Position numbers and translations under genes: made by a program
Part shown: positions 1,030-58,235 of the stretch, one piece after another
How positions within the stretch are numbered: position 1 is the first letter of the stretch
Layout: every line of letters begins with the position of its first letter
Notes under the pieces: generated by a model
What the model was told of the DNA's origin: nothing
Database searches by the model: none
The model's input: only the letters and a program-made list of their open reading frames with translations
Origin: Mobula hypostoma
Taxonomy: Eukaryota
Length of the DNA: 64,000 nucleotides
Assembly: GCF_963921235.1 (NCBI RefSeq)
Contig: NC_086097.1
Location: 24,244,001-24,308,000 of the forward strand
Reading direction: 5' to 3'

Positions 1030-1310
1030 CTTGTGGAACTCAGCGAGCCATGCAGCAACTATGGAGGGAAATGGGCAGTCAACGTTTTAGGTCGGGACAC
1101 TTCATTAGAACTGGATAGGAAGAGGGCAGAAGCTGTAACAAAAGGGTAGAGGGATTGAGAGGAGCCACTCACTCTTCCCCTCCACCCACCTACCTACCTT
1201 CTGCCTTCTCACCTGGATTCACCTATCATCTACCAGCTGCTCCTTTTATACTGGCTTCTGCATTCTTCCTTTCCAGTCCTGATAAAGGGCTTCAATTGTC
1301 CATTTCCCTC
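1030..1310. mobile_element. Penelope-derived fold-back pseudo-LTR fragment with decayed hammerhead motifs
   Basis: Left arm ggaactcagc...cagtcaacgtttt and inverted arm ending ttccagtcctgataaaggg; same family as 19982-20150. Confidence 0.6.
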
Positions 1311-1389
1311 CATTGATGTCGATTGATTCTCTCCCTTTCTCCTGCAATCTGTCTGTTGATGTAGAAACTGTGGTTCCAGGGAGCACCAA

Positions 1390-1508
1390 CTATCTATCTA
1401 TCTGTCTATTGATCTATCTATCTATCTATCTAGCTGTCTATCTGTCTATCTATCTGTCTGTCTGTTGGTCCATCTGGCTATCTATCTATCTGCCTGTGTG
1501 TCTGCCTG
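1390..1508. repeat. (TATC/TGTC)n microsatellite
   Basis: Directly visible tetranucleotide array. Confidence 0.9.
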
Positions 1509-1975
1509 CAAGGTTCAGTACAGTAGTGTAAAAAGTGACACACTGGTGTAGGGACAACATGGTATCATAGTGGTTTGCACCAGTAATCACCAGTGGGGGT
1601 TTGATTCCCGCTACTGTCTGTAGAGTTTGAATTTTCTCCCTGTGACCTCATGCTATGAAGTTGGTGATTACTTGTTGCCAGTAAATGAAGATCACATCAC
1701 TAATGACGCCAAGTTTCAGTCTGTACATTTCCCCCTCCTGTAAGATAATGGTCAAAAAGCTGTACTGCATAGAAACAGGGCCTTTGGCCCATCAGATGAT
1801 TCCTATCTGAACTACTTGCAGCTGCATCAAGAAACTTAGCATCTTTGTTATATGTTACCCACTTTTTAACCTGTGTACCTGTGTGCTCTAGGAATTCATC
1901 TCCAATGCTGTTTCTGACCTCTTGGAATGTGTTGACCCACCTTTACTGAGTGCTGAAGCTTTGTAAGCTGTCCCT

Positions 1976-1978
<3 letters not shown>

Positions 1979-2007
<29 letters not shown>
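1979..2007. repeat. (GT)n microsatellite
   Basis: Directly visible; similar arrays at ~7917-7940 and (CA)n at ~8508-8535. Confidence 0.95.
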
Positions 2008-2009
<2 letters not shown>

Positions 2010-4600: not shown

Positions 4601-5094
4601 CGTGAAGATACAACTATAAACATAAGATTATAGTTTCATCTGCAGTATCTCTTTGTTTATACCGCTGCCTTATTCTTCAAGATATAGGAAAGCCCCTCGT
4701 ATGCTCTATTCCCATGGATCTGGGAACACAATTCCATAATTCCTTGAAAGAAGCATTGCAAGTAGCTAGGGATGTAATTTTAAGTCTTTATAAGGTGCTG
4801 ATGGGCCAAATGCCCTAATTCTGCTCCTGTATCTTATGGTCTTATGCTCTCATCTAATGGGTCATAAAGATAGCTTTTGGCACATTGGCCTTCATAGATC
4901 ATAACACTGACTACAGTAGTTGGGGTGTTTAGTTGAGGTTGTATAAGATGTTGGTGAGGCCAAATTTAGAATATTGTGTGCAGTTCTGGTCACCTACCTG
5001 CAGGAAAGATATTAACAAAATTGAGTGAGTACAGAGAAAATTGACGAGGATTTTAGGACCTGGGTTAGAGGGAAAGGTGAATAGGTTAGCACTT

Positions 5095-5730
5095 TGCACA
5101 AAATGCTGGAGGAACTTAGCAGGTTGGGCAGCATCTATAGAGAGGAATAAACAGTCGATATTTTTGGCCAAGCCTCAACAGGACTGGAAAGGAAGGGGGA
5201 AGATGCTAGAATAAAAAGGTGGGGGGAAGAGAAGATAGCTACAAGGTGATAGGTGAAGACAGGTGAGTGGAGGAGGGGTGTGTGTGTGTGAGTGGAGAGA
5301 TGGAAAATGTAAAGGGCTGTAGAAGAAGGAATCTGATAAGAGAGGAGAGTGGACCACGGGAGAAAGGAAAGGAGGATGGGCACTGGGGGAGGTGGTTGGT
5401 AGGTGAAAAGCGAAGAGAAGAGGTAAGAGAGGGGCCAGAGTGAGGAATTAAAGAAGAGGGAAGGGGGAGGGAGAAATGTTTCCAGAAGTTAGAGAAATCG
5501 ATGTTCATACCATCAGGTTGGAGGCTACCCAGACAGAATATGAGGTGTTGCTCCTCAAACATGAGAATGTTGTCATTGAGGCAGTGAGGAGGCCATCTCC
5601 AACATGTCAGAATGGGAATGGAGAGTGGAATTAAACTGTTTGCCACCAGGATATCCTGCTTTTTGCGGATGGAGTGGAAGAGCTCAACAAAGTGGTCCCC
5701 CATCAATGCTGGGTCTCACCAATGTGTAGG
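5095..5730 (-). mobile_element. Penelope-like element family 1: GIY-YIG endonuclease C-terminus plus pseudo-LTR (decayed)
   Basis: Minus strand reads LHIGETQ (YIG motif), then after a frameshift MGDHFVEL...EEQHLIFCLGSLQPDGMNIDFSNF, followed by a pyrimidine-rich UTR, a decayed hammerhead (cagtcCTGTTGA...tcgactg) and the terminal arm. Confidence 0.8.
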
Positions 5731-6669
5731 TAAATGAGACTGGGCAGAAAGACAGTTCAGCATGGACTAGATGGGCCAAAGGGCCAGCTTCTGCGCTGTA
5801 GTGCTGTATGACTGCAAGACTCTGTTTGTACATGGACTTTAGCTACTTCAGGTTTATAGAGTGCATGGCCTTTCTATGTGCTTCTGCATGTTGTCACGTT
5901 CCTTCAGAAGAACAATTCATCTAATCTTTGAGGCACAGGAGACTATCTGCTCATGACTCAGCCCGAAGTGAATCAGATTTAAATGCTGTTTTACAAACCC
6001 TGCTGCCTGGGACTTCATGCACAAACCTGGATAAAAAGCTGGGATCAGCAAGTTTCTGTCAAAGAAGGGGAGATGAAGAGAATTTTTTTTTTGAAAAAAA
6101 ATAATTCAGTAGGTTGTTCTGATTTGAAATGAGCAGCTTGAATGGACACTGGAAACAGATTTAATAGTGGAGGAAATTGAATAAATACTGGAATAGCAAA
6201 CATTTTGCAGGCTATGGGGAAATTGTAGAGACTTTAAGCTAATGGAATGGCATCAAAATTCCAGCATAGGCATAATGGGCAGAATGGCCTCATTATGTGC
6301 AGGAGGAATAATCTATGGTACCTCAACCATTCCCAATTTCTACCTCCGAGTCAATCTGAAAAAGGTGAAATGAGTATGAATTGAGAGCCCTGAAAGAGAG
6401 CTCTGGAGTCCTTTAATTCAAAGTTAAAGTAAATCAAACTAAAATTTATTATCAAAGTATGTATATGTCATCATATACTACCCTGAGATTCATTTTCTTG
6501 CAGACATGTGAAGGAAAGTAAAGAAATACAATAGAAGTTACAAAATAAGGCTACATATAAACAAAGTCTAATGGATATCCATTGTGCAAAGGAAGAAAAA
6601 TGTGCAAATAAAAATTGCTGAGAGCCTGAGTTGTAAAAAGTTCTTGAAAGTGAGTCTGTAGTGAGTCAG

Positions 6670-7005
6670 CACTCACAAAATGCGAGAAGAACGCACACAG
6701 AACGCCAGTAGGTCAGTAGATGAGGCAGTATCTATGAAGATGATGTTTCAGGCCGAGGCTCTTCATCAGGACTGGAAAGGAAGGGAGGAAGAAATCAGAC
6801 TAAGAAGGTTGGGGGAAGGGGGGAAGGAGTGCAAGATGGAAGGTGATAGGGTGATAAGTGCAGCCAGTTGAGGGGGAGGTAGGTGAGTGAGGAGGGGGGA
6901 ATGAAGAGAGAAGCTGAGAGGTGATAGGCAGAAAAGGTAAAGATCTGAAGAAGAAGGAATCTGATAAAAGAGGAGAGTGGACCATGAGAGAGAGGAGAGA
7001 GAGGT
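6670..7005 (-). mobile_element. Penelope family 1 pseudo-LTR fragment
   Basis: Homologous to 5095-5370; minus strand cagtcCTGATGAagagcctcggcctGAAAcatc. Confidence 0.7.
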
Positions 7006-7404
7006 TCTGGAAGTAATTGCAATAATTTCTCTCTTTTTCCATTCCCATTCTGTCTCCCCTCTTACCCCTTTGCTTCTCCTCACCTCCCTCTGGTTCCCGT
7101 CCCCCAAGCGGGATGGTCCTAGCAGACTACAGGTGGTGCTGCTTCCTCACAGCTTCAGTGATCCGAGATCTCCTGGCACTTCTGTCAGAGTTGGAATATC
7201 CTCTGTGTAACCACACCAACGTCAAAGTAGAGTTTATTGACATTTGCACAAGTACACGTATGTACAGGTGCAATTGAAAACTTACTTGCAGCAAGCATTG
7301 AATTCCAAAGATATGTGGGTTGGCTGGTTAATTGACCTCTGTAATTGTCCCTTCTATGTTGGTGAGTGGTTACGTCAGGACAGAGGTGATGGCAATGTGG
7401 GAGG

Positions 7405-7710: not shown

Positions 7711-8287
7711 AAATATTATGAGGGAATTAGATTGCTCTGTGAGCCAGCATGGAATTGATGGATTGGAAAGGCTCCCTTCTGAAGGAACACGGAATATGAA
7801 GCAGTCTGTGCAGTGGGATCATCAGCTTATGAAAATGTAGCTTCACCTTGCAGTCACCACCCAGTGGAGCCTAACAGAGATGTGCTCGTGTTCAGCTGGG
7901 ACAGGTCCTGTGCACAGTGTGTGTGTGTGTGTGTGTGTGTAAGGGAGCCTCAGGGACAATGCAGCCACACCTGATGCTCCTCACTCTTTCAATGAAAAAA
8001 AAAGCTTCTTGCCTGTTGTTAAAACTGAGACCAGCTTACTTTATACATTGCTATTTCTGTTTCCCCACAAACCTTATTGAGTCTTTGCCAGCTCATGCAC
8101 CAATGCTGTCCCCAACTAATTCCTCAAGATTCAAGATTCAAGTTCGGTTATTGTCTTTCTTCAGTGCATGAGTGTAAAAGAGAACAAAATGATTGTTACT
8201 CCAGATCCTATGCAGCATAAAAGAGCACATTAAATATAAAGTACACAATAGAAAACAAAAACAAAACACAATAAATATGCATATAAA

Positions 8288-8505
8288 AGCAACACACACA
8301 AAATGCTGGAGGAACTCGGCAGGACAGGCAGCAGCTATGGGAAAGAGTAAGTAGTCAGCGTTTCGGGACAAGACCCTTCATCCTAGTCCTGATAAAGGGT
8401 CTCAGCCCAGAACATCCACTGTTTGTTCATTTCCATAGATGCTACCTGACTTGCTGAGTTCCTTCAGCATTTTGTATTTTGCTCTGGATTTTCAGCATCT
8501 GCAGA
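8288..8505. mobile_element. Head-to-head Penelope-derived fold-back unit with a decayed hammerhead on each strand
   Basis: Left arm ...gtcagcgtttcgggacaagacccttcatc is the reverse complement of right arm gataaagggtctcagcccagaacatccactg...; arms are about 95 bp. Confidence 0.75.
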
Positions 8506-10429
8506 AGACACACACACACACACACACACACACACGTATATATATGGTGGTGGTGTAAGTTCAAGTGTAGTCACACCCAGTCCTGAGACACCAGGCAAGG
8601 TCATTTGATATGTTGATCATTACAGAATGCGTTTTTGGTGCTTCCCACTTTCTCCCCTCTCCCTTCCGCTTTTCCCAACCATGATTCCCCTCTTCCTGTC
8701 TCCTTCCCACTCACAGTCCGCAAAAGGGACCTATATCAGAGTCAGGTTAATCAGCACTCACATATGTCATGAATTTTTTTTGTGTCAGCAGTACAATGCA
8801 ATACAAATGGCAGATAGACAGGTGCTGTAGATGCTTTGGGCAATTTTAACTACCCATCCTATCCGCCGCAGTGCAGTTTTCATACCACACAGTGATGCAG
8901 CATGTTAGGATGCTCCCATACCTGGACCACAAGACTGAACCTGTTAAAATGTGGGATGAAATCCTGGGTTTTACAGCTTCGAGCAACTGGGTACCACATC
9001 TTCAAGGTGTGAAGGTTCCAGCGTCTGATTTCACTGCTCAAAGGCAGCCTCGCTCACTCCAGCTTCCCAATCTTTGCCTCAGGCAATCAATCATGATGAA
9101 AAATTGTAAAGCTATGACAATGTTCCTTTTCGAAACAAATGTGATCTTGCCAGAGTTCCCATCACAAACTGGTGCCAGTTCACTCTCATTGGCACTTCTT
9201 TATCGTTTCTATTACTCTTGCTCTCCTTCATCATGACTATTCTGTCAAAGTGTTGTCTGAGCCATTTTAATTCTCAGCCTTCTCATGCAGAAAATTGTGA
9301 AATAATGATCTTTCGTGTAATGTAAACACTGCGTCTGAGGGCTGTAGATTAGCAAGATTTTATGGACTTTTTTTACAGCGCACTAATTTTTTTCTTTTCC
9401 TGTCAGCATGTGGTATGGTTGGCCATTGAGGGATTCACTCTGGGGGCCTGAACTGAAAAGAATAAATGAGCTTCTGGATGAACTCAGCGATTCAGTCAGC
9501 GTCTGTAGAGGCGAAAGGATGGTTGATGTCGCAGGTTGACACCCTTCTTCGGTGTAAAGGAGCAAAAGAGAGGACGAAGAGGCGGGAGTGAGGGGTGATG
9601 AGCTGGCAAGTGATAGGAGAAACCAGGTGAGAAAGGGGTTGATAGGCAGATGGAATCACATCGGGGGAGGGAAGGGTGGATATCCACCAGACAAGGGTTA
9701 ACAGGCCTGAAGAAACTTACATTATCACTGTCCAGCAGAGTCTTGAGATTGCAAGTGAAATGTCCTAGACAATCTCCCACAGTTATACTGTACCATCGAC
9801 GAAGCTTTCAAGTAGTGGGCAGCACAGTCTGCAGGCAGGTCAGTTCCTCTGAACTCAAAATGGCTTCCCCGACGGGTTCCTTTCCAGATATCATTACGGG
9901 CCCCTCTCACATCCTGATGGGCTCCCTTCCCAATATCCCCACTGTCTCCTTCAACACCTTGGCTGGCTCCTTCTCCAACATTACGGCCGGCCTCTTCGAC
10001 ACCTGGGTCGGCTCTGCCACCAACACCAGTCCTGCTACTCTAATCAACGAGCAGCTCACTGAGGGAGTAGCCCTCCAGTACCCGAAGTTCTTGGAGTAGA
10101 ATTGTCTTGCGATTGTAAAAAAAGCAAAATTTACAAGGAGAAAAATCACCTTTGGTTGGCCTCTGAGAGGCCGCTGCATTTGCTGCCATCTTACCAGAAG
10201 TGAACAATACCTTAATCGGTCACTGTGTTACCTATCACAACAATCCCGCACCTCACAAAATTAACGTGATCAAACTGGCCTCTCTTTCAGAATCTTTTGT
10301 TCAGCTGTTTCATTAACTAACTGACTTTAGTTCAGGAAGCATTTCTTCTTTGAATCGAATTAATGCTCCATTTCATTCAGTCTAACACGAGTAGCTATGA
10401 TCAGGGCAACTTTGAACACCCGAAGTATT

Positions 10430-10785: not shown

Positions 10786-11939
10786 GAACTGAAACACAAC
10801 ATAATTCCCTCAACCAGACACCTCCTTTCAAAACTGGAAGCTCAAATCTATAAATTGTGAGCTGAGTCTTTTATTTAGTTTCCCTTTCATCCTCGGCTGA
10901 TATTTTTGACTCTTTTCCATCTAATACACGCTTTCAGTAGCTCAGAATCCAAAGCTCCCCCCATTCTGGATCAAGCTCAGAATTAGAATCCGAATCAGAA
11001 TCAGGTTTATTATCACTGACATATGTTGTGAAGTTTTCTGTTTTGTGGCAGCAGTAGTGCAATACTTAAAAAATTACTTTAAGTTACAATAAGAAATATA
11101 AAAAAAGGAGCACAAAAAGAGGTCAAAATTGTGAGGTAGCTCAGGGGTTCGTGGACTGTACAGTAACTTGATCGTGGAGAGGAAGAAGCTATTTTTGATT
11201 AGGCAGGGCATGAAGGGATTAAGGGATTAGGGCTGAGAGGGAAAATGGTGAAATGGTGGAACAGACTCAATGGACCAAATGGCCTAACCCTGCTCCTATA
11301 TCTTGTGGTCTTATGGTCTTAAATGTTGAATGCGGGTCTTCAGGCTCCTGTACCTTCTCCCTAACAGTAGTAATCAAAGAAGGGCATGTCCTGGGTGATG
11401 AGGGTCCGTCGTAATTGATGCTTGCTGCCTTCTTGAGGTGTCTCCTTTTGAAGGTGTCATCCTGGTGGGGTGCTAGAGAGTTGTTACTGATCTATAACCT
11501 GACCCAAAACAATTCTGCTTTATCTTTAAAGTTGGCTTGATGTTTTCAGCTATTGAGATGTCAGGAGCTCTTTGCCAGAAATCTGAAATGCAATCAGCAA
11601 GTTAGTACATGGAGGAATAGAGAAAGAAACAAGAAAGGCCAAGAGGACTCAACAGGCAAAATGGCCTAATTCTGTTTTTATGACTTATGGTCTAAAATTG
11701 AGCTCCAGGTCAATAACCTTTGTTGGCCTAGAAAGAAGGGTCTCGGCCCGAAACGTTGACTCTTCATTTCCACGGATGCTGCCCGACCTGCTGAGTTGTG
11801 GGTGTTGCTTTGACCCCAGCATCTGCAGAGTATTTTGTGTTTAAATCCAATTTCTTATCTCTATAGAACCTCCCTGTTATTCCTCTTTATCTTATTGGCC
11901 TCCCTTTATTCTGCCTCGTCCCAAGTCCACCGAATTGCA

Positions 11940-12190
11940 TTAATCCTTGTGGAAGTCCTCTGGCCCTACATACCTGTTTACCTGGGAGGCAGATGCACTG
12001 CTCGCTGCCTGTTCTCATTCTGCAAAAGCAGAATTTCCCGCTGGCCAAGCATTTTAATTCCAATCCCTATTCCTGTTCCTACATTTAAGTTAAGGGCCTC
12101 CTCTACTGCACGATAAGATCACTCTCAGGTTGAAGGAGAAATTCTCGTATTCCATCTGGGTAGCCTTCAACCTGATGACAAGAACATCTA
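11940..12190 (+). mobile_element. Penelope family 1 GIY-YIG C-terminal fragment
   Basis: ctggccaagcattttaattcc (LAKHFNS) and ttccatctgggtagccttcaacctgat (FHLGSLQPD); homologous to the reverse complement of ~5500-5690. Confidence 0.7.
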
Positions 12191-12919
12191 TAGTACCATA
12201 CAAAAGTATTTAATGTGTGTTTCTCATTCAGACTTCTGCTGTGTCCTAACTTATGTCTTGCCCTGTTCACATGAAGTTACCATGCATACTTACCTTAATT
12301 TTAACATACTTATTCTTGATGTAAGGTTGAGTGAGCTAGCGTGTTTCTCTTTGGAGTGAAGGTGGATGAGAGATGGCTTGATATAGCTGTATAAGATTAA
12401 GAGAGGCATAGGTAGGTGGACAACCACAGCCAGGTTACCATGATTGCGGTGACCAATACCAGAGGACATCGTTATAAAGAGAGTGGAGGAAACTTTAGGG
12501 AAGGTGTCAGAGGCATTTTTTTTACACAATGAGTGATGGGTGCTAGAAGGACTGGCAGGTTGGTTATAAAGGCTTGATCAGACTTCTGTTATGATTAGAT
12601 GGACTCTTGGCCTCACAATCTACCTTGTTATGATCTTGGACTTTATCTTTTTCCTGCACTGCACTCTTTCAGTAGCCTTCACACTTACTCTGCATTTCAG
12701 TGTTTCCCAGCCTGGGGTCCATCGACTCCTTCCAAAATGCTATTGCTCCATGGCATAAACAAGGTTGGGATCCCCTGCTCGAGCTCAATGCACTGTGCAA
12801 TGATTTGATCAGTCGGAACAGTATGCAAGCCAAGCGTCTCACTCGATCTTGGCACATGTGACAATACTAAACCCAATACCAATACAACGGGGACAGTTAA
12901 GAGAGTCTTAGATAGACAG

Positions 12920-13300: not shown

Positions 13301-14179
13301 GATAGATACGTGGATGTAACAAAACAAAAGGTTATGGGCTGAGCAGGAAGAAAGGGTTAGATTGTTCATGAATACAAGAGATTCGGCAGATGCTGGAAAT
13401 CCAGAACAACATAGTCAAAATGCTGGAGGAACTCAGCAGGTCAGGCAACAGCTGTGGAGAGGAATAAACAGTCAATGTTTCAAGCTGAGACTTTTCATCA
13501 GGATGTAAGACCACAGTGAGCGCATTTCACCTTTAAGACTGTGAACGTTGCCAGTGTTTAGGGTGTAGTGTAAAGAAAGCAGCCATTATTTACATCACGT
13601 AGCAGTGAGTTGTCTAATTAATCAACACATACCGAGCATTTGCCAGCCGCAGTTTACAGCTAACTTTTCTCATATATTTCTTTATGTGTCCTGGTGTCAG
13701 ATGTTCTGATTATACTCCTGTGATATTACATTAAAGGTGTTAAAAGAAATAATGGTTGTTACTGAAGCTTTCGCCTGTTCTGTACGCTGTTTGTTTCACT
13801 TCCTTCTTGGGTGTCAAATTTGTTAATCGGCACCTGGAGTAATTTTCACTTCCTTATCTTTCAGTAAAGTTCAAGGCTATTTGAGACTAAAAGTTCAATA
13901 GAGATGAGTAGCTCCCCTGTTCAGGACACCTTGGCGCATTCTTACTCGACATGCAAGATGCTGGAGGAATGCATTGATCCAGGCAGCATTTGTGGAGGGA
14001 AATGGACACACGGTGTTTTGAGTTAAGGGCTAGATGAAGGGTCTTGGACCAAAACTCCAAATTTCCATTTCCCTCCACAGAAGCTGCCTGACCTGCAAAG
14101 CTCCTCCAGCTTCACTTTTATTGCTCCAGATTCAAGAGTTCAAACATTCAAAGTACATTTATTATCAGAGTATATAAAT

Positions 14180-17185: not shown

Positions 17186-17699
17186 AATGCAAAGTTCAGA
17201 TAAAATTAATATCAAAGTTACCACATACTACATTCATATTCATTTTCTCGTAGGTATTTACAGGGAAAAAATGAAATACAATGGAATTTCATGAAAAATT
17301 GAACATGAACAAGCAAAGACTGATAAAAAACACAATATTCAAAAGAAGACAAGCTTTGCAGATTAAAATAATATTGAAAATGAGTTGTAAAGAGTCTTTG
17401 AAAATGATTTTGTAGGTTGCAGAATCAGTTCAGAGTTGAGGTGATTGAGGTAATCTATGCCAGTTCAAGTGTCTGGTGGTTGTAGGGTAATAACTGTACC
17501 TGAATCTGCTGTTGTGGGACCTGAGGCTTCTGTACCTGCTGCCTGATGCCAGTAGCAAGAAGAGGGCATGGTCTGGGTGATGGGGGCACTTGATGGCCAT
17601 CAGTGAGGACTGGCACGCGTTCTCCTGACCTCCCCTTTCTGAAGTTCAGAATGAAGTCCTTAGTCTTGCTGATGTTCAGTACGAGGAAGACTGTAGGTA

Positions 17700-40505: not shown

Positions 40506-41605
40506 GACTTGCAGACATTGGACCTTTGACTGACTTCCCAACAGCTGGCTTCATGTCTGTGGACTCACTTTCATAAACTTCAGTTCTGAATGTTGTTTGT
40601 TTGCTATTATTGTTTTTTCTCTCTGCACATTGGGTGTTTGATGGTCTTGTTTTAATGGATTCTAATGGGTTGTTTTTTTTTGTGGCTGACTGTAAGGAGA
40701 CAAGTTTCAAGATTGTATAAAGTATACATACTTCGATAATAAATATACTTTGAACTTTGAGATTTGCCTGCTTGGGGCTCCGGTCATCCATACTCTGAAT
40801 GAAGAATTTCCTATGCAATTATTTATTCTTTGGTTGAAATGTCTACAAAAGCATGTCTGGATTGTTATCACATTGCTTTTTGTGAGAGATTCATGTGCAT
40901 GGCTTGGTTGCTGCATTCTCTACATTTACTATATCATTACATTTTCCAAAAGTACTTTATCATCTGCAAAGTACTTTCAGATTGTGAACAATACCAAGGT
41001 GTCAATGTGACTCCCACACAATCTGACCTTGGAGATTCAGAAGCACAGCTGTATGTTTCTGACCACATCAAATGCACCGTCAGGAAAATATCTACTCCAT
41101 TTAATATTTTTCAAATATAATCTAATAGTCAGGAGCATCATTGTAAGTGTTCAGCTCAATGAGTAATAATGCGGTGTATTTTTAATGCCTGTTTATGTGT
41201 GCAAGGGACCAAGGACATGACATCGATTAATGTTCTGCGATTCCTCAGATCTTTTCCAAATGGCCGAAAATGTCATGCCTCAGTTCTCTCCCTCAGTGCT
41301 GGAATGGATGTTTGCTTAATTGAATGTGAATGGCAAAAAGTTGTCTAAGGGCACAGCACACAATACTCTGAAAAAGAAACTCCGGTGTGCTGACCACAGC
41401 GGGAAAGTGATTTCTTGGAAGTCTTGGTCCAGTTAGTTTGATTTTATGTCATTTTTCTTACTATTTTTATCAAAAATAGGAAAAAGAAAATTCTTGAACA
41501 GTCTCAACAGGTCAGGCAGCATCAATAGAAAGAGAAATAGCGAGTGTTTCAAAGTCTGAAACTTAGTAAGAACATTTATCTTTGACTTGTCGACTGCTTC
41601 TCCAT

Positions 41606-42178: not shown

Positions 42179-42769
42179 TAGGGTCACAGTGGCTGCCTGA
42201 CCTATCGAGTTTTCAATACTTATTTCTGAATTCCAGCATCTGCAGTCCCTTTGGTTGAATGGCACCTTAGTCTGAAGTTTCAGATCAGCTTCTGTGGTAT
42301 CAGGGACAGAGAATAAGAATAAGACAGGATGCGGAGAAAGAGACAACAGTTGTTCCTTTCATGACAATGTCTTTAGAAGGGAGTAAAGGTCCACTGAGCA
42401 AATGCCCTCATTGTGCTCTCCAGTGCTTGGTACATTTTTAACTATCCATCTGCTAGATACCGATAGACTCCCTGTGGATTTATTTAACAATTTCAATTAC
42501 CTGCCTGTATTTAACTATATGCTAATTCAAGGACAGAAAAGAAATAAATCATTAAAGATAATTTGGTGATGGGCCAATGGGGATAGCTGAGTGTTCTTGG
42601 GCAGCCAAGCGGAACTCCTATTGACAGGTGCAGTTAAGACCTTCCTGTACAGAGAACCAGAAAACTGAGTTAAACTGAAATCAGAGTAATTGAACTTTAA
42701 ATTGATTAACTTGGCAAATCTTAAAGACTGAGAAGGTAGATCCTGTCCAAGTAATTTAGCACTGTGGCT

Positions 42770-43630: not shown

Positions 43631-43635
43631 AGTCA

Positions 43636-44600: not shown

Positions 44601-47049
44601 GAAGGCAGAGGAACTGTGTTAAACAAAGTCATGCATAGGCGTCGTCTGTTAAGGGATTCTGGATCTGCCTCTACAACCACCTAATGGCCCACCAATAGAA
44701 AACCCCTTAGGAGAACATCAAACTTGACTTGAGTATTCACACTAGTACTATTAATAGTTCTCATGAAAGTTCTTGGCCTGTCACATCGTCTGGTTTTTTC
44801 TCTCTATAGATGCTGCCTGACCTGCTTTGTTCCTCCAGCATATTGTATGTGTTCCTCACAATTTGCAGCATCTGCAAAACCTCTTGTGTTTATTGGGATT
44901 GGTTTAATATTGTCACATGTACCAAGATACAGAGAAGAGCTTATCTCACATACTGTTCATGCAGATCAATTCATTGCACAATGCATTGATCTAGAATAAG
45001 GCAAAACAAAAACAGTGCAGAATAAAGTACAAAATCTACCAGAAAAAATGCAGTGCAGGCAATGATAAAGTGCAAGATCTCGCCGAAGTAGATTCTGAGG
45101 TCAAGAGTCCACCTTATTGTACAGAAAGTCCATTCAAGAACCTGATAATAGTGAGTCAGAAACTGTCCTTGAGCGTTCAGGTTTTTGTTTTTTCTGCCTG
45201 TATATGTTTGTGTATGTGTTTGCATATTCATACATCTGGAATGTGTATGGACATATCCATGAGTTTGCGTATATCTGCATCATATCAGTGAACGTGTGAA
45301 TATCTATATGTGTTTCCCTGTATATAAGTTTATATACAATGTACACAAATAATGTCGTCACAGTTCTGGAGTCTGCCCGTCCAGGCTCCCTTGTGGTGAT
45401 ATTATGTGTGCATGTGAAATTTTCAAGATAAACTCTAATACAAAAATGTGGGAACATTTTAACAATCATTTTCTATTATAGTCTGTAACCAAATGGCCAC
45501 CTACAATCATCGATTGCCCTAAGTAGATATAAGAACTGGGAGCAGGAACAAACCACCTCAGGAGACAGAAGAAATTAGGCAAGTCTTCATCGATGCCCAC
45601 CAATTTTTATCGATGCACCAAAGAAAGCATCCTATCTCAATGCATAACGGGTTGGTTTGGCAACTACTCTGCATGGATCACAAGGAACTGCAGTGAATTG
45701 TAGACGCAGCTCAGCACATCACATAAACCACCCGTTCCTTCTATGGACTCTATCCATACTTCTTGCTGCATGAGTAAGCCTGCCAGCATAGTCATAGATA
45801 CCTCCTCCTTGTCACCTCTTCCATCGGATAGGAGATACAAAGGCCTGAAAGCATGTGTCTCCAGGCTCAAGGACAGCTTTTATCTCACTGTTATTATAAT
45901 ATTAACCAGTTCCCTGGTGTGATAATTTGGTGTGACATTTTAAACACCTTATTGTTCACCTGCACTGCATTTTTGCTGTGATTGTCTCCAAAGAACACAT
46001 AAGGTGGAGGTTGATAGGCTCTTGATTAGTAGGGGCATCAACAGTTATGGAGGGAAGGCAGTAGAATGGGGTTGATAATAAATCAGACATGATGGAAAGG
46101 CAGATTAGACTTAATGGGATGAATGGCCTAATTCTACTCCTGTGTCTCTGTTTTACACCATCTGAGTTGGGATCAAATATTTTGCTCCATAATAATGAAA
46201 GGCTTACAGGATAGTGTTTAAAAGCAGAGTTGTAAACCTGAAGAGGTGAAAAAGCATGTTATAATTCAAGTCATCTCCCACCATCTTTGCCTTATATATC
46301 ACCCCAATCTTGTATTTCTCCTTCAAGGTAATACGTACTCACTTGTCAAACCTGCCAACAAGTATCAGTTAAAACTCAAGTAGAACTGTTCGCAGAGACA
46401 GTGAAATACAAGTGAGCTCCCAAAATACAAGACAGAGTATATTTGCTACACAGTTCAATAACCTGCAAGACTTTTGGGTGATAGGCTTTCATCGGCTTCC
46501 CAATACAATGTCATACATGACAAGTTCAACTTCATCAGAATACTGAACAAATTAAATTGAGAACATTCTCCAGTGCACAGTGCAAGCCACATGCTCCAGG
46601 GAACTGAGATGTCCATCAACTAAAAGCCAACGCACAGCAGAGATTGATAGACGCTGACTGGCTGACAAACAGTGGTCTGTTCGTGGCCCGTTTATAAAGA
46701 TAGTTATTATTCTTCTAGCCAAATGCAACTTTACCAGGAGCCAGAAAGCAAGGCAGAGTGATACAGGTCCTTTCTCTTTGTCCAGATCCAAAGCAATCTG
46801 CTCATATGTCGGCTCTGTTTCTCTCCCTGCAGATGTGGAGTGTTTCTGTTTGTATTTTACATTTCTGTTTTAGTTCGGCACCACCTGGAGTTTTGTTTTA
46901 TTTTCACTTGACCACACTCGAAAGAGGTCACTGTTGGTATCCATTTTCCAGAGCAAGATCTGAAGAACTCTGAAGGATTAGTTTCTTGGTTTTAGCAACA
47001 TTGACCAGAGCACCCCATTTCAAATTAATGGAATGGGAGGGGCTGTACT

Positions 47050-48332
47050 ATAGTCATAGTCATACTTTATTGATCCCGGGGGAAATTGGTTTTCGTTACA
47101 GTTACAGTTAAATAATAAATAGTAATAGAAATAGTAATAGTAATATTACTATTAGTAAATAGTAAATAGTAATAGTCATAGAAATAATAAATAGTAATAG
47201 AATAGTAATAGAAAATAGTAATAAATAGTTAAATAATAATATGTAAATTATGCCAGTAAATTATGGAATAAGTCCAGGACCAGCCTATCGGCTCAGGGTG
47301 TCTGACCCAAGGGAGGAGTTGAAAAGTTTGATGGCCACAGGCAGGAATGGCTTCCTATGACGCTCTGTGTTGCATCTCGGTGGAATGAGTCTCTGGCTGA
47401 ATGTACTCCTGTGCCCACCCAGTACATTATGTAGTGGATGAGAGACATGAACCAAGATGGCATGCAACTTAGACAGCATCCTCTTTTCAGACACCACCAT
47501 GAGAGAGTCCAGTTCCATCTCCACAACATCACTGGCCTTACGAATGAGTTTGTTGATCCTGTTGGTGTCTGCTACCCTCAGCCTGCAGCCCCAGCACACA
47601 ACGGCATACATGATAGCACTGGCCACCACAGACTCGTAGAACATCCTCAGCATTGTCCGGCAAATGTTAAAGGACCTCAGTCTCCTCAGGAAATAGAGAC
47701 GGCTCTGACCCTTCTTGTAGACACCCTCAGTGTTCTTAGACCAGTCCAGTTTATTGTCAATTCATATCCCCAGGTATTTGTAATCCTCCACCGTGTCCAC
47801 ACTGACCCCCTGGATGGAAACAGGGGTCACCGGTACCTTAGCTCTCCTCAGGTCTGCCACCAGCTCCTTAGTCTTTTTCACATTAAGCTGCAGATAATTC
47901 TGCTCACACCATGTGACAAAGTTTCCTACCATAGCCCTGTACTCAGCCTCATCTCCCTTGCTGATGCATCCAACTATGGCAGAGTTATCGGAAAACTTCT
48001 GAAGATGACAAGACTCCGTGCAGTAGTTGAAGTCCGAGGTGTAAATGATGAAGAGAAAGGGAGACAAGACAGTCCCTTGTGGAGCCCCAGTGCTGCTGAT
48101 CACTCTGTCAGACACACAGTGTTGCAAGCACACGTACTGTGGTCTGCCAGTCAGGTAGTCAAGAATCCATGATACCAGGGAAGTATCCACCTGCATCGCT
48201 GTCAGCTTCTCCCCCAGCAGAGCAGGGCAGATGGTGTTGAACGCACTGGAGGTCAAAAAATATGACCCTCACAGTGCTCGCTGGCTTGTCCAGGTGGGCG
48301 TAGACATGGTTCAGCAGGTAGACGATGGCATT
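47050..48332 (-). mobile_element. Well-preserved 5'-truncated Rex1/Babar LINE (RT domain to 3' end)
   Basis: VRVIFFD/SSAFNTI...TGAPQGTVLSPFLFIIYTSD...QKFSDNS...LNVKKTKELVADLRR...YKYLGI, then in the same frame after one stop MLRMFYESVVASAI...FLPVAIKLFN; 3' end cccccgggatcaataaagtatgactatgactat. Confidence 0.92.
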
Positions 48333-49181: not shown

Positions 49182-49468
49182 CAACACATACAAAATGCTG
49201 GAAGAACTCAGCAGTTAAGGCAGCATCTATGGAAAGGAAGAAACAGTCAATGAATTGAGCTAAAACCCTTCATTAGAACCGGAAAGGAAGGGAGATGAGG
49301 CCAGGATAAGAAGGTGGGGTGGCGGGGGGGAGGAGAGGAGTACAAGCTGGCAGGTGATGAGATTAGGTGAGGGGGAAGGTGGGTGGGTGGGGAAAGGAGA
49401 ATGAAGCATAAAGCAGGGAGGGTATGGGTGGAAGAGGTAAAGGCTGAAGAAGAAAGAATCAAAGGAAA
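49182..49468 (-). mobile_element. Penelope family 1 pseudo-LTR fragment nested in an old CR1-type 3' end (~48930-49595)
   Basis: Homologous to 5095-5340; imperfect flanking repeat gaactcccgac / gagctcctgac. Confidence 0.65.
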
Positions 49469-50889
49469 GGAGCTCCTGACATAATAGGTGCACCATCACT
49501 AAACACTACAGCAGTTCAGGATAAAGGCTCTCCACTATTTTGTTAAGGACAATCAAAAATGTGCATTAACTTCTGGTCTTGCTGGTTATATCCAAGTATG
49601 AAAGAAATTATTCTTCTGTTCCTTGGTGCTTTCAAGTGACATTGTCTAATCTACCTTAGTGTGAACTCGTATTTTCAATTGAAAAGTGACAGAGCATTGT
49701 ATGAAGAAGTAAAAGTCAGAGGCTTCAATGGGTGAAGGAAATATTAGTTTCAGTGAATTTTGCCTTGTTCAAAGTTCAAAGTAAATTTATAATCAAAGTA
49801 TGTATCACCATATACTACCCTGAGATTCATTTTCTTGTGGGCATTCACGGTGGATACAAAGAAACACAATAGAGTCAGTGAAAAACTGCACACAAAGACA
49901 GAGAAACAACCAATGTGCAAAAGAAGACAAAATGTGCAAATACAAAAATATAAATAATAGATGGTATTGAGAACATGAGTCATTGAAAGTGTTTCCTTGG
50001 GTTATGGAATCAGTTTAGCGCTGAGGTGAATGAAGCTTATTTTGCCATTGTTTCTGACACAAAATGCTGGAGGAACTCAGGCAGCATCTATGGAAAGGAA
50101 TAAAGAGTTGATTTTTCGAGCTGAGACAAGGTCCTGATCCAATATTGTTTGTGCAGTTTTCTAAAATCAAAGACTCACTGGAGAAATTCTGGATGTAAAG
50201 TCAAATAAAGTCAAATTTATGCTCCACAGTTCCAGTTACATCACCCACATTTCTTTCCATCCCTTATCCATCTGCTTCTCAAAGGGTTTATTGTCTCTGC
50301 TCCCCATATGAGGCATTCTGTCAAAGGTCATGAGGTTCCTTATGAATCACTATCATATATTTACGCATGTTCCCGTGTTGTGGAATCAAGCCTAACCCTT
50401 TGGTGGGCTTGTACTGTTCCTTTCACACATTCTGCTGTGTGAACTTGCCAAACACACTTGTAAAGCAGTGATCTTCATAGGCAATTTGATTTTTTCTGCT
50501 GACAATTGCAAATGAAGTCAATCACTAGAAGTCTACAAAACAGTCTGTGAGATGCCAGACAGGTGACAGAGGCTTTTACATATGGTACCAAAGCAGCAGA
50601 TGAATGAAAAGTAGGTCAGGGAGTTTTGCAATATGTTTGCTAGCTCTTGTGTTACTTCAGTGAGATCTCAGACACACACACACTCACAACGAGAGCACAG
50701 ATGCATTAAGCTGCGTACCTTTCTTACCTGCTTGCTTCTTTTATCTATGGTGATTCTCAGCAGACTGTCTGCTGCTCCAGTTTCCAGCATCTTCAGTCTT
50801 GCGTGAATATTCATCTTGTGTCCAGGCTAACCCGGTTTAAAAGATCACAGTTACCTGCAGGCTGACCAATTGACATTTATCATAAGAGA

Positions 50890-51332: not shown

Positions 51333-51968
51333 AGAATCTTTTATGTTAACTTTGCTTTGCTGTGGTGAGTCTGGAAAGAGTGAGGTTATAGAGTCATAGA
51401 GTACTACAGCACAGAATCATCTCAACCGAGTCAACCTGGTCTTCTGCCTAGTCCTATTTAGCTGCATCTGGAATACAACCCTCCATACCCCATCTTCCAT
51501 CCACCTATTCAAATTTTTCATAAATGTTGCAATTAAACTTTCATCTACCATTTCCACTGGTTCCACACTCCCACCACCCTCTGAGTGAAGAGGTCCCTCC
51601 TCTGATTCCCCTTAAATATTTCACCTTTCACCCAAAACCTATGAACACTAATTCTAGTCTCACCCCAACTTCAGTGGAAAAGGCCTGCTTGCATTCACCC
51701 TACCTCTTCCCCTCATAATTTTGTATACCTCTATAAAATCTCCCGTCTTTCTCTTACATTCCAGGGGGAAGAAAAGGACCTTACCTGTTCAAACATGAAA
51801 TGCTGGAGGAACTCAGCAGGTAAAGCAGCATCTATCTAGAGGAATAAAGAGTCGACATTTTTGCCCAAGACCCTTCATCAGGAGGTCTCAGCCTGAAAGG
51901 TCAACACTTTATTCCTTTTCATAGACACTGCATGACCTGCTAAGTTCCTCCAGCATTTTGTGTGTGCT

Positions 51969-52588
51969 ATGATTATGAAGACAGGTAGTCCTCTTTTATT
52001 GTCATTTAGTAATGCATGCATTAAGAAATGATACATTATTTCCTCCAGTGTGATATCACAAAAACACAGGACAAACCAAGACTGAAAAAACTGACAAAAC
52101 CACATAATTACAACATATCGTTACAAACAGTGTAACAATACCATAACTTGATGAAGAAGTCCGTGAACACAGTAAAGTTCAAAGTTTCTCAAATGTCCCA
52201 CATCTCACGCAGATGGGAGAAGGAAGAAAAACTCTCCCCGCCATGCCGACCACGGTCCGGCTCTCAGTCATCCAAAAACTTCAAGCTCTGATCAGCTCTC
52301 CGACACCGAGTACTAAGTGCCATCTCTGTCCAAACGATTCGACCTCCTTCTCGGTTGCCAAAAGCAGGCAAGGCCGGGGATTTTGAGGCCTACCCTCCGA
52401 AAGATTCCCGACCACACAGTAACGACAGCAGTGGACGGGTGTTTCAGAAATTTCTCCAGATGTTCCTCTGTGCTTTCACGTCCATTCTCCATCAAATCAG
52501 AATTGTCCACGGCCCCTATTTAACAGATACAATATCAATTTTCACCAGAGGGCTGCGCACGCGCGGCGCGCTGCCATCTTCTCCTCCC
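51969..52588 (-). mobile_element. Family A retroelement, copy 3, inserted in the arm of a Penelope fold-back unit (~51795-51968 plus ~52590-52628)
   Basis: Head GGGAGGAGAAGATGGCAGCGCGCC; host reads ...cagcattttgtgtgtgct | ctggatttccagcatctgcaga. Confidence 0.85.
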
Positions 52589-53065
52589 GCCTGGATCTGG
52601 ATTTCCAGCATCTGCAGAATCTCTTGTGCCGACCTGTTCAACCTTGCCCAATAACTTGGGTCTTCAAGTCCCAGCAACACTGTACATTTTCTAAATGTTA
52701 ACATTCAAAAATATTTGGAATCTTAGTCATGAGTAATGGATTTTCAAGGGTTGTGAGCTTTCAGGAAAGGTTCATAGAAAGCTCAGGGGTCATGACCATT
52801 CTAATACTATGGTCTATCAACATTTGGTAATTGAGCGTGACTGATGCTAGAAGCAGGCAGGGACTTGATGGAATAAAAAGCCTGTAACAATTCTCTATTT
52901 CCATGATCTAATGCTTCTGGAATCAGAGTGTCAAAACACACCGGTTTATTAACCTGCCAATATTCGTTGACTAGTCACATTCACTGGGAAATGTTACATC
53001 CATAAAATCTCAGCCAGTGGCCACCACCGGTGCTCCTGCAGCTGAGGCATTACTGACGCACTGAT

Positions 53066-53663: not shown

Positions 53664-55979
53664 TTTTCTGACCCTGTCAAATCTTTGAAAGCTGTTATAT
53701 TCGATGAAGAGGAAGAAGAAAATTGCATATTATTTTTAGCTGACGTTTTACAAATGGCAGAAAGGGAATCAGGTTTATTATTTGTTGTTCCATAAAACAA
53801 TACTATAAGTTATATATAAATAAGTAAGTAAATAGTGCAAAAAGAGCAAAAACTGAGATCATGTTCATGGGATAATGGACTGTTTAGAATTCTGACAGTG
53901 GAGGGGAAGAAGCTGTTCCTAAAATGTTGCCTATTTCTATCTGCTTATGATTAACGAACAGGGGATAGGAAATAAAAGAAAATTTTCTGCAGGACCTCGA
54001 TGGGTGAGCAGGGGTTAAATGAAAAGGCAAAATAAATGTCTTCAATGCAGATACAGTTGATTTGTCCCCTTGGAATAACTCAAGCCTAGTATGAATGTGC
54101 TGTACGGGTCTGTGGAACAAATTCGGCTGCAGAATGCCCCCAGCAAGTTGTGTATGCACTCAGAGCTAACTGTGTGTAATCATTAGTAAAAATGAGCACT
54201 GTTCTTCAGCTCCAGTGGCCACCCTCTTCCTTACCAGAGCAGAGAATTGAGCACTGTGTACTCGGTTTGCATTCGCAACCTTAGTTCCATTAACGGCAGC
54301 GGCGACTCTGAATCAGATTCATTTATTTATCACATGTACATCAAAGCAGACAGAGAAATGTGTCATTTGCATTCACAACCAACACAGCCAAGGGTGTACT
54401 GGGGGTGGCCTGCAAGTGTCACCACACATACCGGAGGAATAGAGGGAAAGAGGTGAGGTGGGTAACGAGTGAGGTATATGAATAGTGGGAGAATTTTGGA
54501 TCACTCTCAGAGTAGAAGGATGTCCATTTAGAACAGTATTGAGGAATTCCTTTAGCCAGAGGGTGGTGAATCTTTAGAAGCCATTGCCGCAGACAGCTGT
54601 GGGGGCCAAATCATTGGGTCTATCTTGATATGTTCTTGATTAATAAGGGCATCAACGGTTACAGGGAGAAGCGGGTGAATGGGGTTGAGGGGGGAAATAA
54701 ATCAGCCATGGTTCAATAGTGGAACAGACTTGATGGGCCAAATTGCCTAATTCTGCTCCTGTGTTTTATAATCTTGTAGTGTGAGTAATGGGCAGATGGA
54801 GAGTGCAGAGAGGGGAAGCAGCAGGGTGATGGTGACAGAGCTTTTTGTGTGTTGCTCTGGATTTCCAGCCCCAGAATCAGCTTTAATATCACTGGGATAT
54901 GTCGAGAAATTTGTTGTCTTTGCATCAGCAGTACATTGCAATACATGATAATAGAGAAAAAAAACTGAATTACTGTAAACAAATAATAAATATATATAGA
55001 TAGATACATATAAATAGTTTAATAATAGTTTAATTAAATAAATAGTGCAAAAATAAAAATTTTTTAAAGTAGCGAGTAGTGTTCATGAATTCAATGCCCA
55101 TTCAGAGGGAAAGAGGCTGTTCCTGAATTGTTGAGTGTGTGCCTCCAGGCTTCTGTATCTCCTTCGTACCCACAGATCTGCAGTCTGTTGTGTCTATGCC
55201 CTCATCTGCTTTTCAGCTACAGCTTCAACTTCCTCCTGGTCAATCTCAGGATTTCTGAATGGACAATTAACTCGTGTCCACTACTCAGATCAGATCGGTA
55301 TGTATATGTATATGTTCTGAACTGATTCTAACAGAAATCTCAATGGCAAAACTGACAAGTTACCAAAGCAGGTCCAAGCTATTTGTGAATATTGCTGACA
55401 CAGAATTTCTTTATTTTTTTTCCTTCTCATTGGCGGGAGAATTATTGTCTTGCCGCATTTATTGCCCATCCCGAACTATGGGATTAGCTAATGAGTTGTT
55501 CACATTGGTAGGATGGAAATCACTGATGGAACAGACTGGATAAGGACCGCAGATTTTCTCCCTGAAGGACATTAATGTACCAGATGGGATTTTAGCAACA
55601 AAACCCTATAGCTTTATGGTTACCATTACCGAGCTTAGCTGTTTCTTTTAAACTCCAGATTTATTTAATTACTTGAAATTTAATTCCTCAGTTTCCACAG
55701 TTGGAATTGAATTGATGTCTTTAGATCAATAGACTCTGGCCCGGTAATTTAACTGCCGTGTTGTTGTAACCCCAAGCTTATATAATGGCTGTTCGGAAGT
55801 GATTCATTGATGTGAGGTGCTTTGGGCTGTTAGAAATGTATGCAATAGAGCATTAGGAGCTTTTAAATTCAGGAGTTAATATCCTGCTGTCTTTGTATGG
55901 TGAGCAGGATAGCTGACATTCAATTATCTCACCATCAGCCAGATTTTAAAATTCACATTATTCTGTTCAGATCTGTACA

Positions 55980-56785
55980 TGGTCTCACCCCTCTGCAACA
56001 TTCTTCAACTCCCCAACTCCGGTATTACCCTCCCAAAGCTTCTCCAACTCCCCAACTCTGGTCTCACCCTCCTAAACCTTCTTCAACTCCCCACCTCAGG
56101 CTTCACCCCTCTCTGACCTTCTCCAACTCCCCAACGCTGGTCTCTCCACTTCCCAAACTTCCAACTCCCCAACTCTGGTCTTCCCAGTCCCCAAACCTCC
56201 AACTCCTCAACTCTGCTATCACCCCTCCCAAACCTTTTCCAACTCCCCATCTCTGGTCTCGCTGTTCTCCAAACTTTTTCAACTCCCCAGCTCTGGTCTC
56301 CTCGCTTCCCAAATTTCTCCACTTCCCCAACTCTGCTATCACCCCTCCCAAACCTTACCCAACTCCCCAACTCTGACCTCACCCCTCTCTGACCTTCTCC
56401 AATCTCCAAACTCTGGAATCCTTACCCCAAAATTCTCCAACTCCCCAACTATGACATTACCCCCAACTCCATTCTTCCACTTCCCTACCTTTACTAACCT
56501 CCCAACTCTTGTTTTACCCATTCTGAACCTTTCCCAAGCTCCCAAATGTGGTCTTGCTCCTCTCCAACCTTCTTCAAGCCCCCAACTCTTGATTTCTTCC
56601 CTTCCTGCTCTGTCCAATACCCACCTGTGCTCTCAGTCTCCCTCAAACATCTCCACCCCCAACTCTGATCTCACCCCTCCCCAATCTTCTCCAAAACCCA
56701 AATGCGATCTGTTCCCTCCCTTCTCCAGCCTCCCAACTCTGATCTGACTTCCAAACCACCATTCTCCTCAGCTCTGGCCTCTTTC
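55980..56785. repeat. C-rich minisatellite, ~39-40 bp unit, roughly 20 degenerate copies
   Basis: Unit approximately CCCCAACTCTGGTCTCACCCCTCCCAAACCTTCTCCAACT; unit starts at 56011, 56050, 56089, 56129. Confidence 0.9.
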
Positions 56786-57299
56786 ACTCCATAACTGGCA
56801 GTCCTGAATGTTGCCCCCTGGACTCTAAGCTCTAGTCCTCACCATTTCTTTCACCACATTTAAATCTGGACAAACCTTAAACCTTCAGTCATCTCCTCAT
56901 ATCATCTTCATTGGTTCATTATCAGATTCTCGGTGCACTAAACACCTTGGACTGACTTACTTGAGGACATCCGACGAGATGCTGCAGCAAGCTTTGTTTT
57001 CACCAAGTCCTAGCTCCCATTTCGTCCTTCCAGCAGAATTTCCGTGGCTTCTGATTCTCACCTGATCCCACTTATCCTGTTCTGGTAAATGGGATTGGTA
57101 TCAATATGCTTCATGAGAATGTGCACCTACTGGAATGTGAAGCAAAGAAGTTCAAATTCAAGTTTAATTGTCATTAAAGCATACATGAATACAGCCAAAT
57201 GGAACAGAGTTACTCCAGGGCCAATGTGCAAAACATAATGCCAATTGTCACACACAGCACAAAGTTCATATAAGTGCATATAAGGTATCCGTAAAATAT

Positions 57300-57672
57300 G
57301 TTCATTCATTATGCACCATGTTGTATGCCATGGGCGATCATGGTCTTTCCATGACCATGATTGTTCTTGATGAATTTTTCTACAGAAGTGGTTTGCCATT
57401 GCCTTCTTCTGGGCAGTGTCTTTACAAGATGGATGACCCCAGCCTTTACCACTATTCCGAGATTGTGTGCCTGGTATCTCTGATTTCATAAGTGAGGCTT
57501 GTGATATGCACCAGCTGCTCACACAACCTTCCACCACCTGCTCTCATGGCTTCACGTGACCCTGATCAAGAGGACTAAACAAGTGCTGCGCCTTGCCCAA
57601 GGTGACCTGCAGGCTATCAGAGGGAAGGAGCGACTTACACCTTCTTTGATAGAGATGTATCTCCACCCTGCC
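57300..57672 (-). mobile_element. Non-autonomous RTE-related element (same family as 12920-13300)
   Basis: Minus strand gaaggcaatggcaaaccacttctgtag and tail cataatgaatgaac. Confidence 0.7.
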
Positions 57673-58235
57673 ATCCTAAGTAATACACAGTCACACAAAA
57701 AAATGCAGTCCATAACCCTGAGTCCACAAGTGTTACAGCAGTCTGCAGTCAAACACAATACGGCTTGTCTTCTGCCAAGCAGACTCTGGGGGGCAGCACT
57801 GAATCCACCTTGGACAGCTCCCCCCACCACCCCAGAACTCCAGTGGAGTGTGCTGACCCCAAGGCCCCTCTCCTGGGCAGCTGTAAGCAGGCGATACCGT
57901 GGCTTGAGGCCTAGTCCACACTACGACTGAGGCCATGCTGCTCCTGCACCATCCACCAATAAATCAGTGAATCCGACTTGCAGCATTCCACATTAACAAT
58001 GCCCAACAGCATCTTGCAATCACAAGAAAAGCGACTAAGATGATAAGACATAACTGTTGGATGAAGTCAGCATGTCAGGCAGTATCTGTGGAGGCCTAGC
58101 CAGCATTTCAGGTCGAGACTGCTGCAGGGTCTAGGCTTGAAATGTTCTCCATCCCTCTGCCTCCACAGATTAGATTAGATTATGAGGACACACAGTCCTC
58201 TTTTATTGTCATTTAGTAATGCATGCGTTAAGAAA

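Follow-up and report, generated by a model that had tools for sequence, protein, structure and literature searches.

A 64,000-nucleotide stretch of the Mobula hypostoma genome (RefSeq assembly GCF_963921235.1, contig NC_086097.1, positions 24,244,001 to 24,308,000; hereafter the window), repeat-rich animal DNA with a G+C content of 41–49%, holds a dispersed family of small units in which a hammerhead motif is followed by a conserved arm. These copies very likely derive from an endonuclease-positive Penelope-like element (PLE) present in many copies, probably of the Neptune type, in a cartilaginous fish, and would be 5'-truncated insertions that were dead on arrival. The parent would have carried, in order, a reverse transcriptase, a zinc linker, a GIY-YIG endonuclease, a pyrimidine-rich untranslated region (UTR), a minimal type I hammerhead, an arm of about 65 nt and an optional tail of 30–40 nt. 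Within the window one can follow the order from GIY-YIG to tail and see truncated copies, partners in inverted orientation, one-sided tails, target duplications at three units and decay driven by CpG.

A sequence-only reading of the window had described more than a dozen copies on both strands, and we found the unit at 16 of its 16 positions, on the strands implied. A nhmmer profile built from 10 copies gave 31 matches at E ≤1 in the 64 kb and a longer profile built from 19 copies gave 35, with no match to either profile in the reversed window; the family is thus about twice as large as that list. It extends to 62947, past the range first described, at a density of about one piece per 2 kb. 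Rfam hammerhead families at gathering score had no match in the window, and a strict descriptor matched one family copy (C3 at 20055) and one unrelated chance sequence.

On the element strand, the majority unit opens with the helix I 5' strand CAGUC and the core CUGAUGA, followed by an extra A, a helix II of GGGU and GCCC around the loop CUCG, then GAA, the palindrome ACGU where helix III would be, the base at the cut site and the helix I 3' strand GACUG. Position numbers, and the catalytic roles of core letters, are those that we take to apply to this unit. The arm, 3' of the hammerhead, runs from a pyrimidine tract through AG and some 45 conserved nt to a TG-rich end, and some copies only continue into the tail. 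In the core alignment, which comprises the 20 of the 31 profile matches that hold most of the core, the majority sequence has the core CUGANGA ... GAAA ... UH closing helices I and II. G10.1–C11.1 is the commonest pair at its position (9 of 21 copies), and the palindrome variants ACGT, ACAT and ATGT form a CpG-decay series. The extra A had been said always to follow CUGANGA; it does so in 19 of 20 and 21 of 22 copies, the exception being the copy at 5186, which has G beside a 3-nt deletion.

Judged by its letters, the unit's hammerhead is the published minimal type I hammerhead (min-HHR) of PLEs. As described for metazoan PLEs by Cervera and De la Pena (2014; PMC4209133), the min-HHR has an extra base between positions 9 and 10.1, a G10.1–C11.1 pair and a palindromic 15.2–16.2; our family shares all three and the 5-bp helix I, and likewise occurs as dispersed single copies of truncated elements with opposite-strand neighbours. 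Helix II differs, with 4 bp and a 4-nt loop here versus 7–8 bp in the Schistosoma motifs of that paper, which also reports min-HHRs in fish Xena, Poseidon and Neptune elements; one of its two supplement files has no shark, skate or Callorhinchus entry. Literature on sharks and rays (including 10.1101/2025.06.08.657570) yielded no description of this family, though Repbase and Dfam lay outside the search and may hold it.

The connection to a PLE is carried by the longest copy, on the minus strand. Here tblastn, a three-frame reading and DNA alignment place at 5479–5745 a broken and frameshifted PLE GIY-YIG domain of which the 3' half is left, running from roughly the YIG motif as far as the open reading frame (ORF) extends: the stretch 5479–5703 matches residues 294–370 of a Mobula protein, P0002 (46%, E 5e-12), and the start near 5745 comes from DNA alignment with a second remnant. 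P0002 contains the final part of a reverse transcriptase along with a CX4CxxC linker and a GIY-YIG domain, the last matching Pfam GIY-YIG at E 5e-4, below the curated cut-off; the window remnant by itself matched no Pfam family. About 290 nt of pyrimidine-rich sequence (5187–5478) then lead to the hammerhead at 5186. We assign this stretch as 3' UTR by its likeness to sequence upstream of the hammerheads at 1279, 6769, 9552, 33262 and 49276 (66–71% alike), the match being weaker at 9552 and also at 1108. The copy ends in a hammerhead and arm (5096–5186, C3 at 5181; profile and core alignment) in which A6 and G12 are mutated and helix II has lost 3 nt. The motif had been proposed to lie downstream of a GIY-YIG remnant, and the two are indeed collinear on one strand.

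A second GIY-YIG 3' remnant lies at about 11940–12191 on the plus strand (tblastn E 3e-8, DNA alignment), about 90 nt behind the tail of a 5'-truncated hammerhead, arm and tail (11732–11848, plus; profile), with no UTR after it. Its start falls close to the YIG codons at which the 5745 remnant begins, it ends before the UTR, and the arrangement at 11732–12191 would be either a partial tandem or an internal deletion derivative.

Paralogous contigs chain the endonuclease end, UTR, hammerhead, arm and tail in this same order. Contigs of four public runs were aligned to 5000–5900 at 80% likeness, a placement that takes in flanking pieces of LINEs (long interspersed nuclear elements), so that it gives no copy number; 83,571, 77,203 and 75,826 contigs were placed for three DNA runs and 5,261 for the fourth run. 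The pieces listed overlap as a chain (5099–5227, 5190–5342, 5314–5470, 5322–5548 and 5412–5566), joints connect 5223 with 5492 in two of the runs and 5376 with 5485 in three, and loose ends at 5097, more than 1,000 per DNA run, continue into the tail. The 754 loose ends that run X1 has at 5179 give a consensus in which G12, the GUC triplet, ACGU and both helices are whole. Run X24 is RNA only by presumption and is not taken as a sign of expression. The longest copy and the contig chain together link the motif to a PLE ORF.

The endonuclease remnant is closest to proteins of Mobula hypostoma, Hypanus sabinus, Leucoraja erinacea and Rhincodon typus. The nearest relatives have a CX3-4CxxC linker, found in 9 of 9 inspected, and two cysteines inside GIY-YIG; reverse transcriptase is present in P0002, P0003 and P0016. 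Full-length relatives with both domains number 72 proteins of at least 740 aa at E 1e-10, the best about 50% identical, and Pfam identifies RVT_1 and GIY-YIG in the two that were searched. The consistent presence of the linker points to Neptune or Nematis, and not Penelope/Poseidon, as the probable clade. The Neptune clade as described by Craig et al. (2021; PMC8557442) resembles this family in its C-terminal GIY-YIG, a hammerhead near the 3' end, 5' truncation, an inverted 5'-truncated partner and a 30–40 bp tail at one end. Its CX2-5CxxC linker is found in our nearest proteins, and Nematis has the linker too; in the window, by contrast, neither linker nor reverse transcriptase occurs, and the probable clade comes from the relatives' linker and not from a tree. 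Exact motif scans of metagenome, viral and prokaryote collections found nothing in each, and in 29 metagenome loci encoding P0002 relatives nhmmer found no match to the hammerhead-arm unit and a covariance model found only three weak ones (E 0.03–0.55); these loci do not bear on linkage. One metagenome contig, L013, carries near 1615 on the minus strand a different minimal hammerhead with a 7-bp helix II, and encodes a related reverse transcriptase on the opposite strand.

The insertions themselves bear further PLE hallmarks. Seven loci are abutting head-to-head pairs, with the tail mostly on one side. At 1023–1320 a minus copy (C3 1108, about 55 nt of UTR) faces a plus copy (C3 1279, about 113 nt of UTR) whose core is partly deleted; at 8286–8507 the two meet at the hammerhead 5' edge and only the plus copy has a tail, which ends at a (CA)n run. 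The junction falls inside the hammerhead at 13949–14135 and, with a 3-nt overlap, at 51790–51968, while in an old pair at 58052–58172 each half starts in helix II. At 17676–17905 an arm-only minus copy adjoins a plus copy with a GGGT/ACCC helix II and a tail; all six are profile matches. The seventh pair, at 19982–20150, is the best-kept unit (descriptor and core alignment), an arm-only minus copy with a plus copy of a third subfamily (C3 20055, predicted cut after 20082), and lies between 16-bp direct repeats with one mismatch (19966–19981 and 20151–20166). An eighth pair, also from the profile, faces across about 175 nt at 22616–23017 (C3 22746 minus, 22931 plus) and consists of two old copies of a subfamily that we call 'CC-arm' after CC at two diagnostic arm positions. 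The same unrelated repeat end adjoins two of the pairs (51969–52010 and 58173–58230).

Solo copies with UTR, all on the minus strand and, apart from that at 33256–33534, identified by profile, lie at 6675–7088 (C3 6769, about 235 nt of UTR, with an inverted UTR piece at 7027–7088), 9427–9650 (an old 'CC-arm' copy whose UTR match is weak), 33256–33534 (about 270 nt of UTR and the first half of the hammerhead, without arm) and 49184–49470 (C3 49276, about 195 nt of UTR). Among the shorter stubs, one on the plus strand at 36839–36928 starts exactly at the helix I 5' strand and, by flank comparison, stands between 13-bp direct repeats with one mismatch. Another on the plus strand, at 24257–24354 (core alignment), starts at C3, with core and ACGU intact and the helix I 5' strand absent, and has an 11-bp direct repeat in its flanks, the left one 12 nt upstream of C3. 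Profile and core alignment give stubs at 13363–13503 (minus; core letters intact, helix II AAGT/GCTT, arm and tail) and 31429–31560 (plus; from helix I onward, G12 mutated, with tail). The profile adds others on the plus strand at 44756–44892 (from helix I onward, with tail) and, beyond the range first described, at 60659–60705 (arm only) and 62850–62947 (from the end of helix II, with tail), and on the minus strand at 37750–37829 (old, starting in the core), 41485–41550 (weak, starting at G12) and 50057–50127 (starting in helix II); a weak arm-and-tail piece lies at 42185–42253 (plus, E 2e-4). The direct repeats of 16, 11 and 13 bp thus occur at 3 of 20 units, with scores of 14, 11 and 10, whereas random flanks reach at least 10 in 2 of 1000 trials. 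Published accounts of PLEs describe truncated partners in inverted orientation, tails on one side and duplications of variable length (PMC8557442, PMC3846280).

A different reading of these hammerheads is that the units are retrozymes not bounded by long terminal repeats (LTRs), replicating as tandem repeats via circular RNA. Animal non-LTR retrozymes as described by Li, Clavereau and Pollet (2026; 10.64898/2026.07.22.740005) share a type I hammerhead, an origin from PLE pseudo-LTRs and an abundance of monomers, and one chondrichthyan sampled there has them. They are defined, however, by tandem units with whole hammerheads, whereas the window holds no head-to-tail array: adjacent units either face each other head to head or lie over 1 kb from one another, and no copy begins at the cut site. 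We therefore regard retrozymes as very unlikely here.

The 5' ends are unevenly spread. Their set omits three weak tail-only matches and adds the armless 33262 copy; 19 of 33 ends fall between −10 and +27 of C3, and 10 of these between −6 and +2. Per base, stops occur at a rate of 0.023 across the hammerhead, as against 0.006 for the UTR and 0.004 for the arm (p 0.0007), and solo copies considered separately place 11 of 19 ends across the hammerhead (p 0.0009); offsets were set by hand and the interval was chosen after seeing the data, so these p values are optimistic. None of the 33 ends lies within 3 nt of the cut site, which agrees with uncut RNA as the main template, as described for the anole Poseidon element PAc (Frangieh et al. 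2024, PMC11167929), where insertion is from uncut RNA and ends at the cut site are likewise lacking.

One possibility, which we rate as rather unlikely, is that the 90–140 nt stubs are run-off products, primed in an upstream pseudo-LTR arm or tail, extended to the 5' end of uncut RNA beginning at helix I and inserted directly like strong-stop DNA. An RNA 5' end near helix I, which we also think possible but rather doubtful, would refine the PLE explanation and would not replace it. The raised stop rate across the hammerhead suggests such an end, as does the 36839 stub, which begins exactly at helix I against its own target duplication; and since stalling at a fold would be expected on the 3' side of the hammerhead, an RNA end near helix I is the simpler account of the excess. 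On the other side stand not only the manual offsets and the post hoc interval but also uneven detection: arm-only stubs are harder to find, UTRs of other subfamilies may be missed, and the copy at 22746 was assigned its UTR from pyrimidine content alone. All four arm-only pieces start at +45 to +49.

The arm bears on the same question. AG at the end of the pyrimidine tract is retained in 28 of 31 and 29 of 32 copies, and in the majority sequence an ATG preceded by AG lies 22 nt beyond the cut site and begins a frame of 28 codons that crosses the tail without a stop; the other two frames meet early stops. This AG-ATG and frame recall the pseudo-LTRs that hold an ORF start in Adineta Pen2a (PMC3846280) and in anole PAc (PMC11167929), and suggest that the arm may be the start of the next unit's ORF. 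PAc belongs to the Penelope/Poseidon clade, however, and its ORF is described as starting at stem II (PMC11167929). Against a candidate ORF start here, the ATG is CTG in 5 of 32 copies, and none of 11 candidates from a protein search matched the frame that crosses hammerhead, arm and tail, although so weak a search neither supports nor excludes it. Offsets +33 to +52 from C3 (for example 44793–44812, plus), comprising the pyrimidine tract, YAG and ATG, resemble a splice acceptor before a start codon; PLEs also contain leader introns (PMC2377424). A stable conserved fold of the arm is unsupported, since 6 of 6 copies tested folded no more stably than shuffles (z −1.66 to +1.88).

Several observations weigh against insertion from a Neptune-type PLE as the source of these copies. 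The 64-kb window contains no PLE reverse transcriptase, and a full-length copy is thus unseen; the Neptune label draws on a part of the protein that window copies lack; and the endonuclease, UTR and hammerhead are joined within the window in one copy only. Among the contig pieces listed, no single piece spans endonuclease to hammerhead, and the loose-end consensus of runs X5 and X9 already contains CpG-type changes, G12 included. A clear target duplication is lacking at 17 of 20 units, and simple random truncation leaves the excess of 5' ends across the hammerhead unexplained.

The sequence-only reading went further and proposed that helix II varies while staying paired, as a sign that subfamilies kept the fold under selection. 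The helix II letters that it quoted are correct at 11738, 24265, 17782, 20063 and 13482–13493, but its list missed the unpaired cells of helix II, 13 of 77, and pair counts did not stand out from a control of 500 column shuffles of the 20 copies. Paired cells in helix II amount to 83.1% versus 80.5% in shuffles (reached by 75 of 500), two-sided changes to 4 versus 2.3 (70 of 500), and the covariation score was reached by 58 of 500; for helices I–III together the three measures were reached by 250, 451 and 256 shuffles. Of the variants quoted, GGGT/GCCC is simply the consensus, GGGT/GCCT arises from C to T at a CpG, and AAGT/GCTT occurs in a single copy, with two G-C to A-U changes; no association links A10.1 with U11.1 (counts 3, 2, 5 and 11; Fisher p=0.33). 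Only GGGT/ACCC marks a subfamily: the loop-closing pair is U-A in 6 of 8 'CC-arm' copies versus 1 of 13 others, which have U.G (p=0.003, in the 21 copies with letters at all three places, the two diagnostic arm positions having been picked after inspection). Clustering on the whole arm did not separate the subfamilies, while those two positions did.

Ordinary mutation accounts for most of the apparent paired changes in helix II. Four CpG dinucleotides make up the variable columns: one in the loop, and then C11.1–G12, C15.2–G16.2 and C17–G1.1. Across 34 aligned pieces, 98 of 213 CpG cells have changed from the assumed ancestral letter, 88 of them by transition, compared, outside CpGs, with 16 of 150 catalytic cells and 43 of 297 others, and with 164 of 996 cells in the arm. 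A C-to-T change at 11.1 leaves a G.U pair and so looks like conservation, whereas the sister CpG change, G12 to A, would kill the hammerhead core. That helix II differences record compensatory evolution among active subfamilies is, in our estimate, unlikely: the 'CC-arm' change from U.G to U-A keeps pairing and alters one side only, helix II measures lie slightly above shuffles and one copy has two G-C to A-U changes, but no measure passes the shuffle control, A10.1 and U11.1 are unassociated and C11.1 is a CpG cytosine. G10.1–C11.1 is, moreover, described as highly conserved in working hammerheads (PMC4209133), and its loss therefore reads as decay. Twenty old copies and four pairs give low power for covariation, so that selection in active lineages, for which no significant covariation appeared within this window, is no more than plausible.

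That most copies are now decayed was borne out, with 0 of 20 fully intact. All core letters are kept in 4 of 20, none of which has both the palindrome and helix I, and G12 is lost in 9 of 20 copies of the core alignment and 11 of 27 in a larger one. These letters predict that the present copies are not working ribozymes. Host co-option of copies as working ribozymes or regulatory RNA is accordingly the least probable of the readings weighed here, and we give it hardly any credence: catalytic non-CpG cells have changed slightly less often than other non-CpG cells, a difference stated without statistical test, and the four core-intact copies would fit it, but the frequent loss of G12, the absence of palindrome and helix I together in those four and the folds no stabler than shuffles speak against it.

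Insertion by a PLE would thus explain the family as follows. On the pattern of published PLE work, the element protein would bind its own RNA, GIY-YIG would nick the target and reverse transcription would start in the arm/tail region at one of two sites, two priming sites leaving the tail present or absent. PAc has a similar region after its hammerhead, with two 3' end positions that define the tail, and its tail is explained by two internal reverse transcription start sites (PMC11167929). Synthesis would usually halt early, and fold-back or a second priming, again as in published PLE work, would yield head-to-head pairs. Cleavage after GUC in the active parent would need a hammerhead dimer or the help of protein, because helix III is merely the palindrome ACGU; min-HHRs are likewise described as expected to act only as dimers, with low activity in vitro (PMC4209133). 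Head-to-head pairs place their hammerheads on opposite strands and so would form no dimer within one transcript. Copies would be made from uncut RNA and then decay neutrally.

The window also contains other repeats. Broken LINE-type reverse transcriptase frames with RVT_1 matches lie on the minus strand at 47285–48268 and 58370–59707; they are unrelated to the Penelope element, and we take them to be of L2/CR1 and HER1 kinds. The frames at 47762 and 59255, which fall in these two stretches, were considered as this element's own and rejected, since they matched its reverse transcriptase region in none of 230-odd related proteins save one that is chimeric. A second abundant family, with LINE-like 3' ends, comprises 12 copies of a 48-nt block (4799, 11268, 11650, 21222, 22395, 23407, 29703, 41748, 42136, 46112, 53623 and 54731) and presumably represents the HER1/HE1 tail of sharks and rays. 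Four copies, 64–93% alike, belong to a further repeat that is several hundred bases long (18776–19395, 39936–40533, 52026–52654 and 60028–60671), and 55995–56747 is a degenerate C-rich tandem array with a 39–40 nt unit and strong negative GC skew.

These results add rays to the vertebrates whose PLEs carry minimal hammerheads, a kind of element already published. They also indicate that CpG decay in a G-C rich stem can mimic covariation, as C-to-T changes keep G.U pairs. With about one piece every 2 kb, the family offers a large sample of insertion ends for testing PLE mechanism, including the role of the hammerhead, the start of the RNA and the origin of head-to-head pairs. If the RNA does begin at helix I, the hammerhead cut would be shown not to define the template, and the histogram of 5' ends would locate, to the base, where the RNA of a vertebrate Neptune-type element starts and where it is primed.

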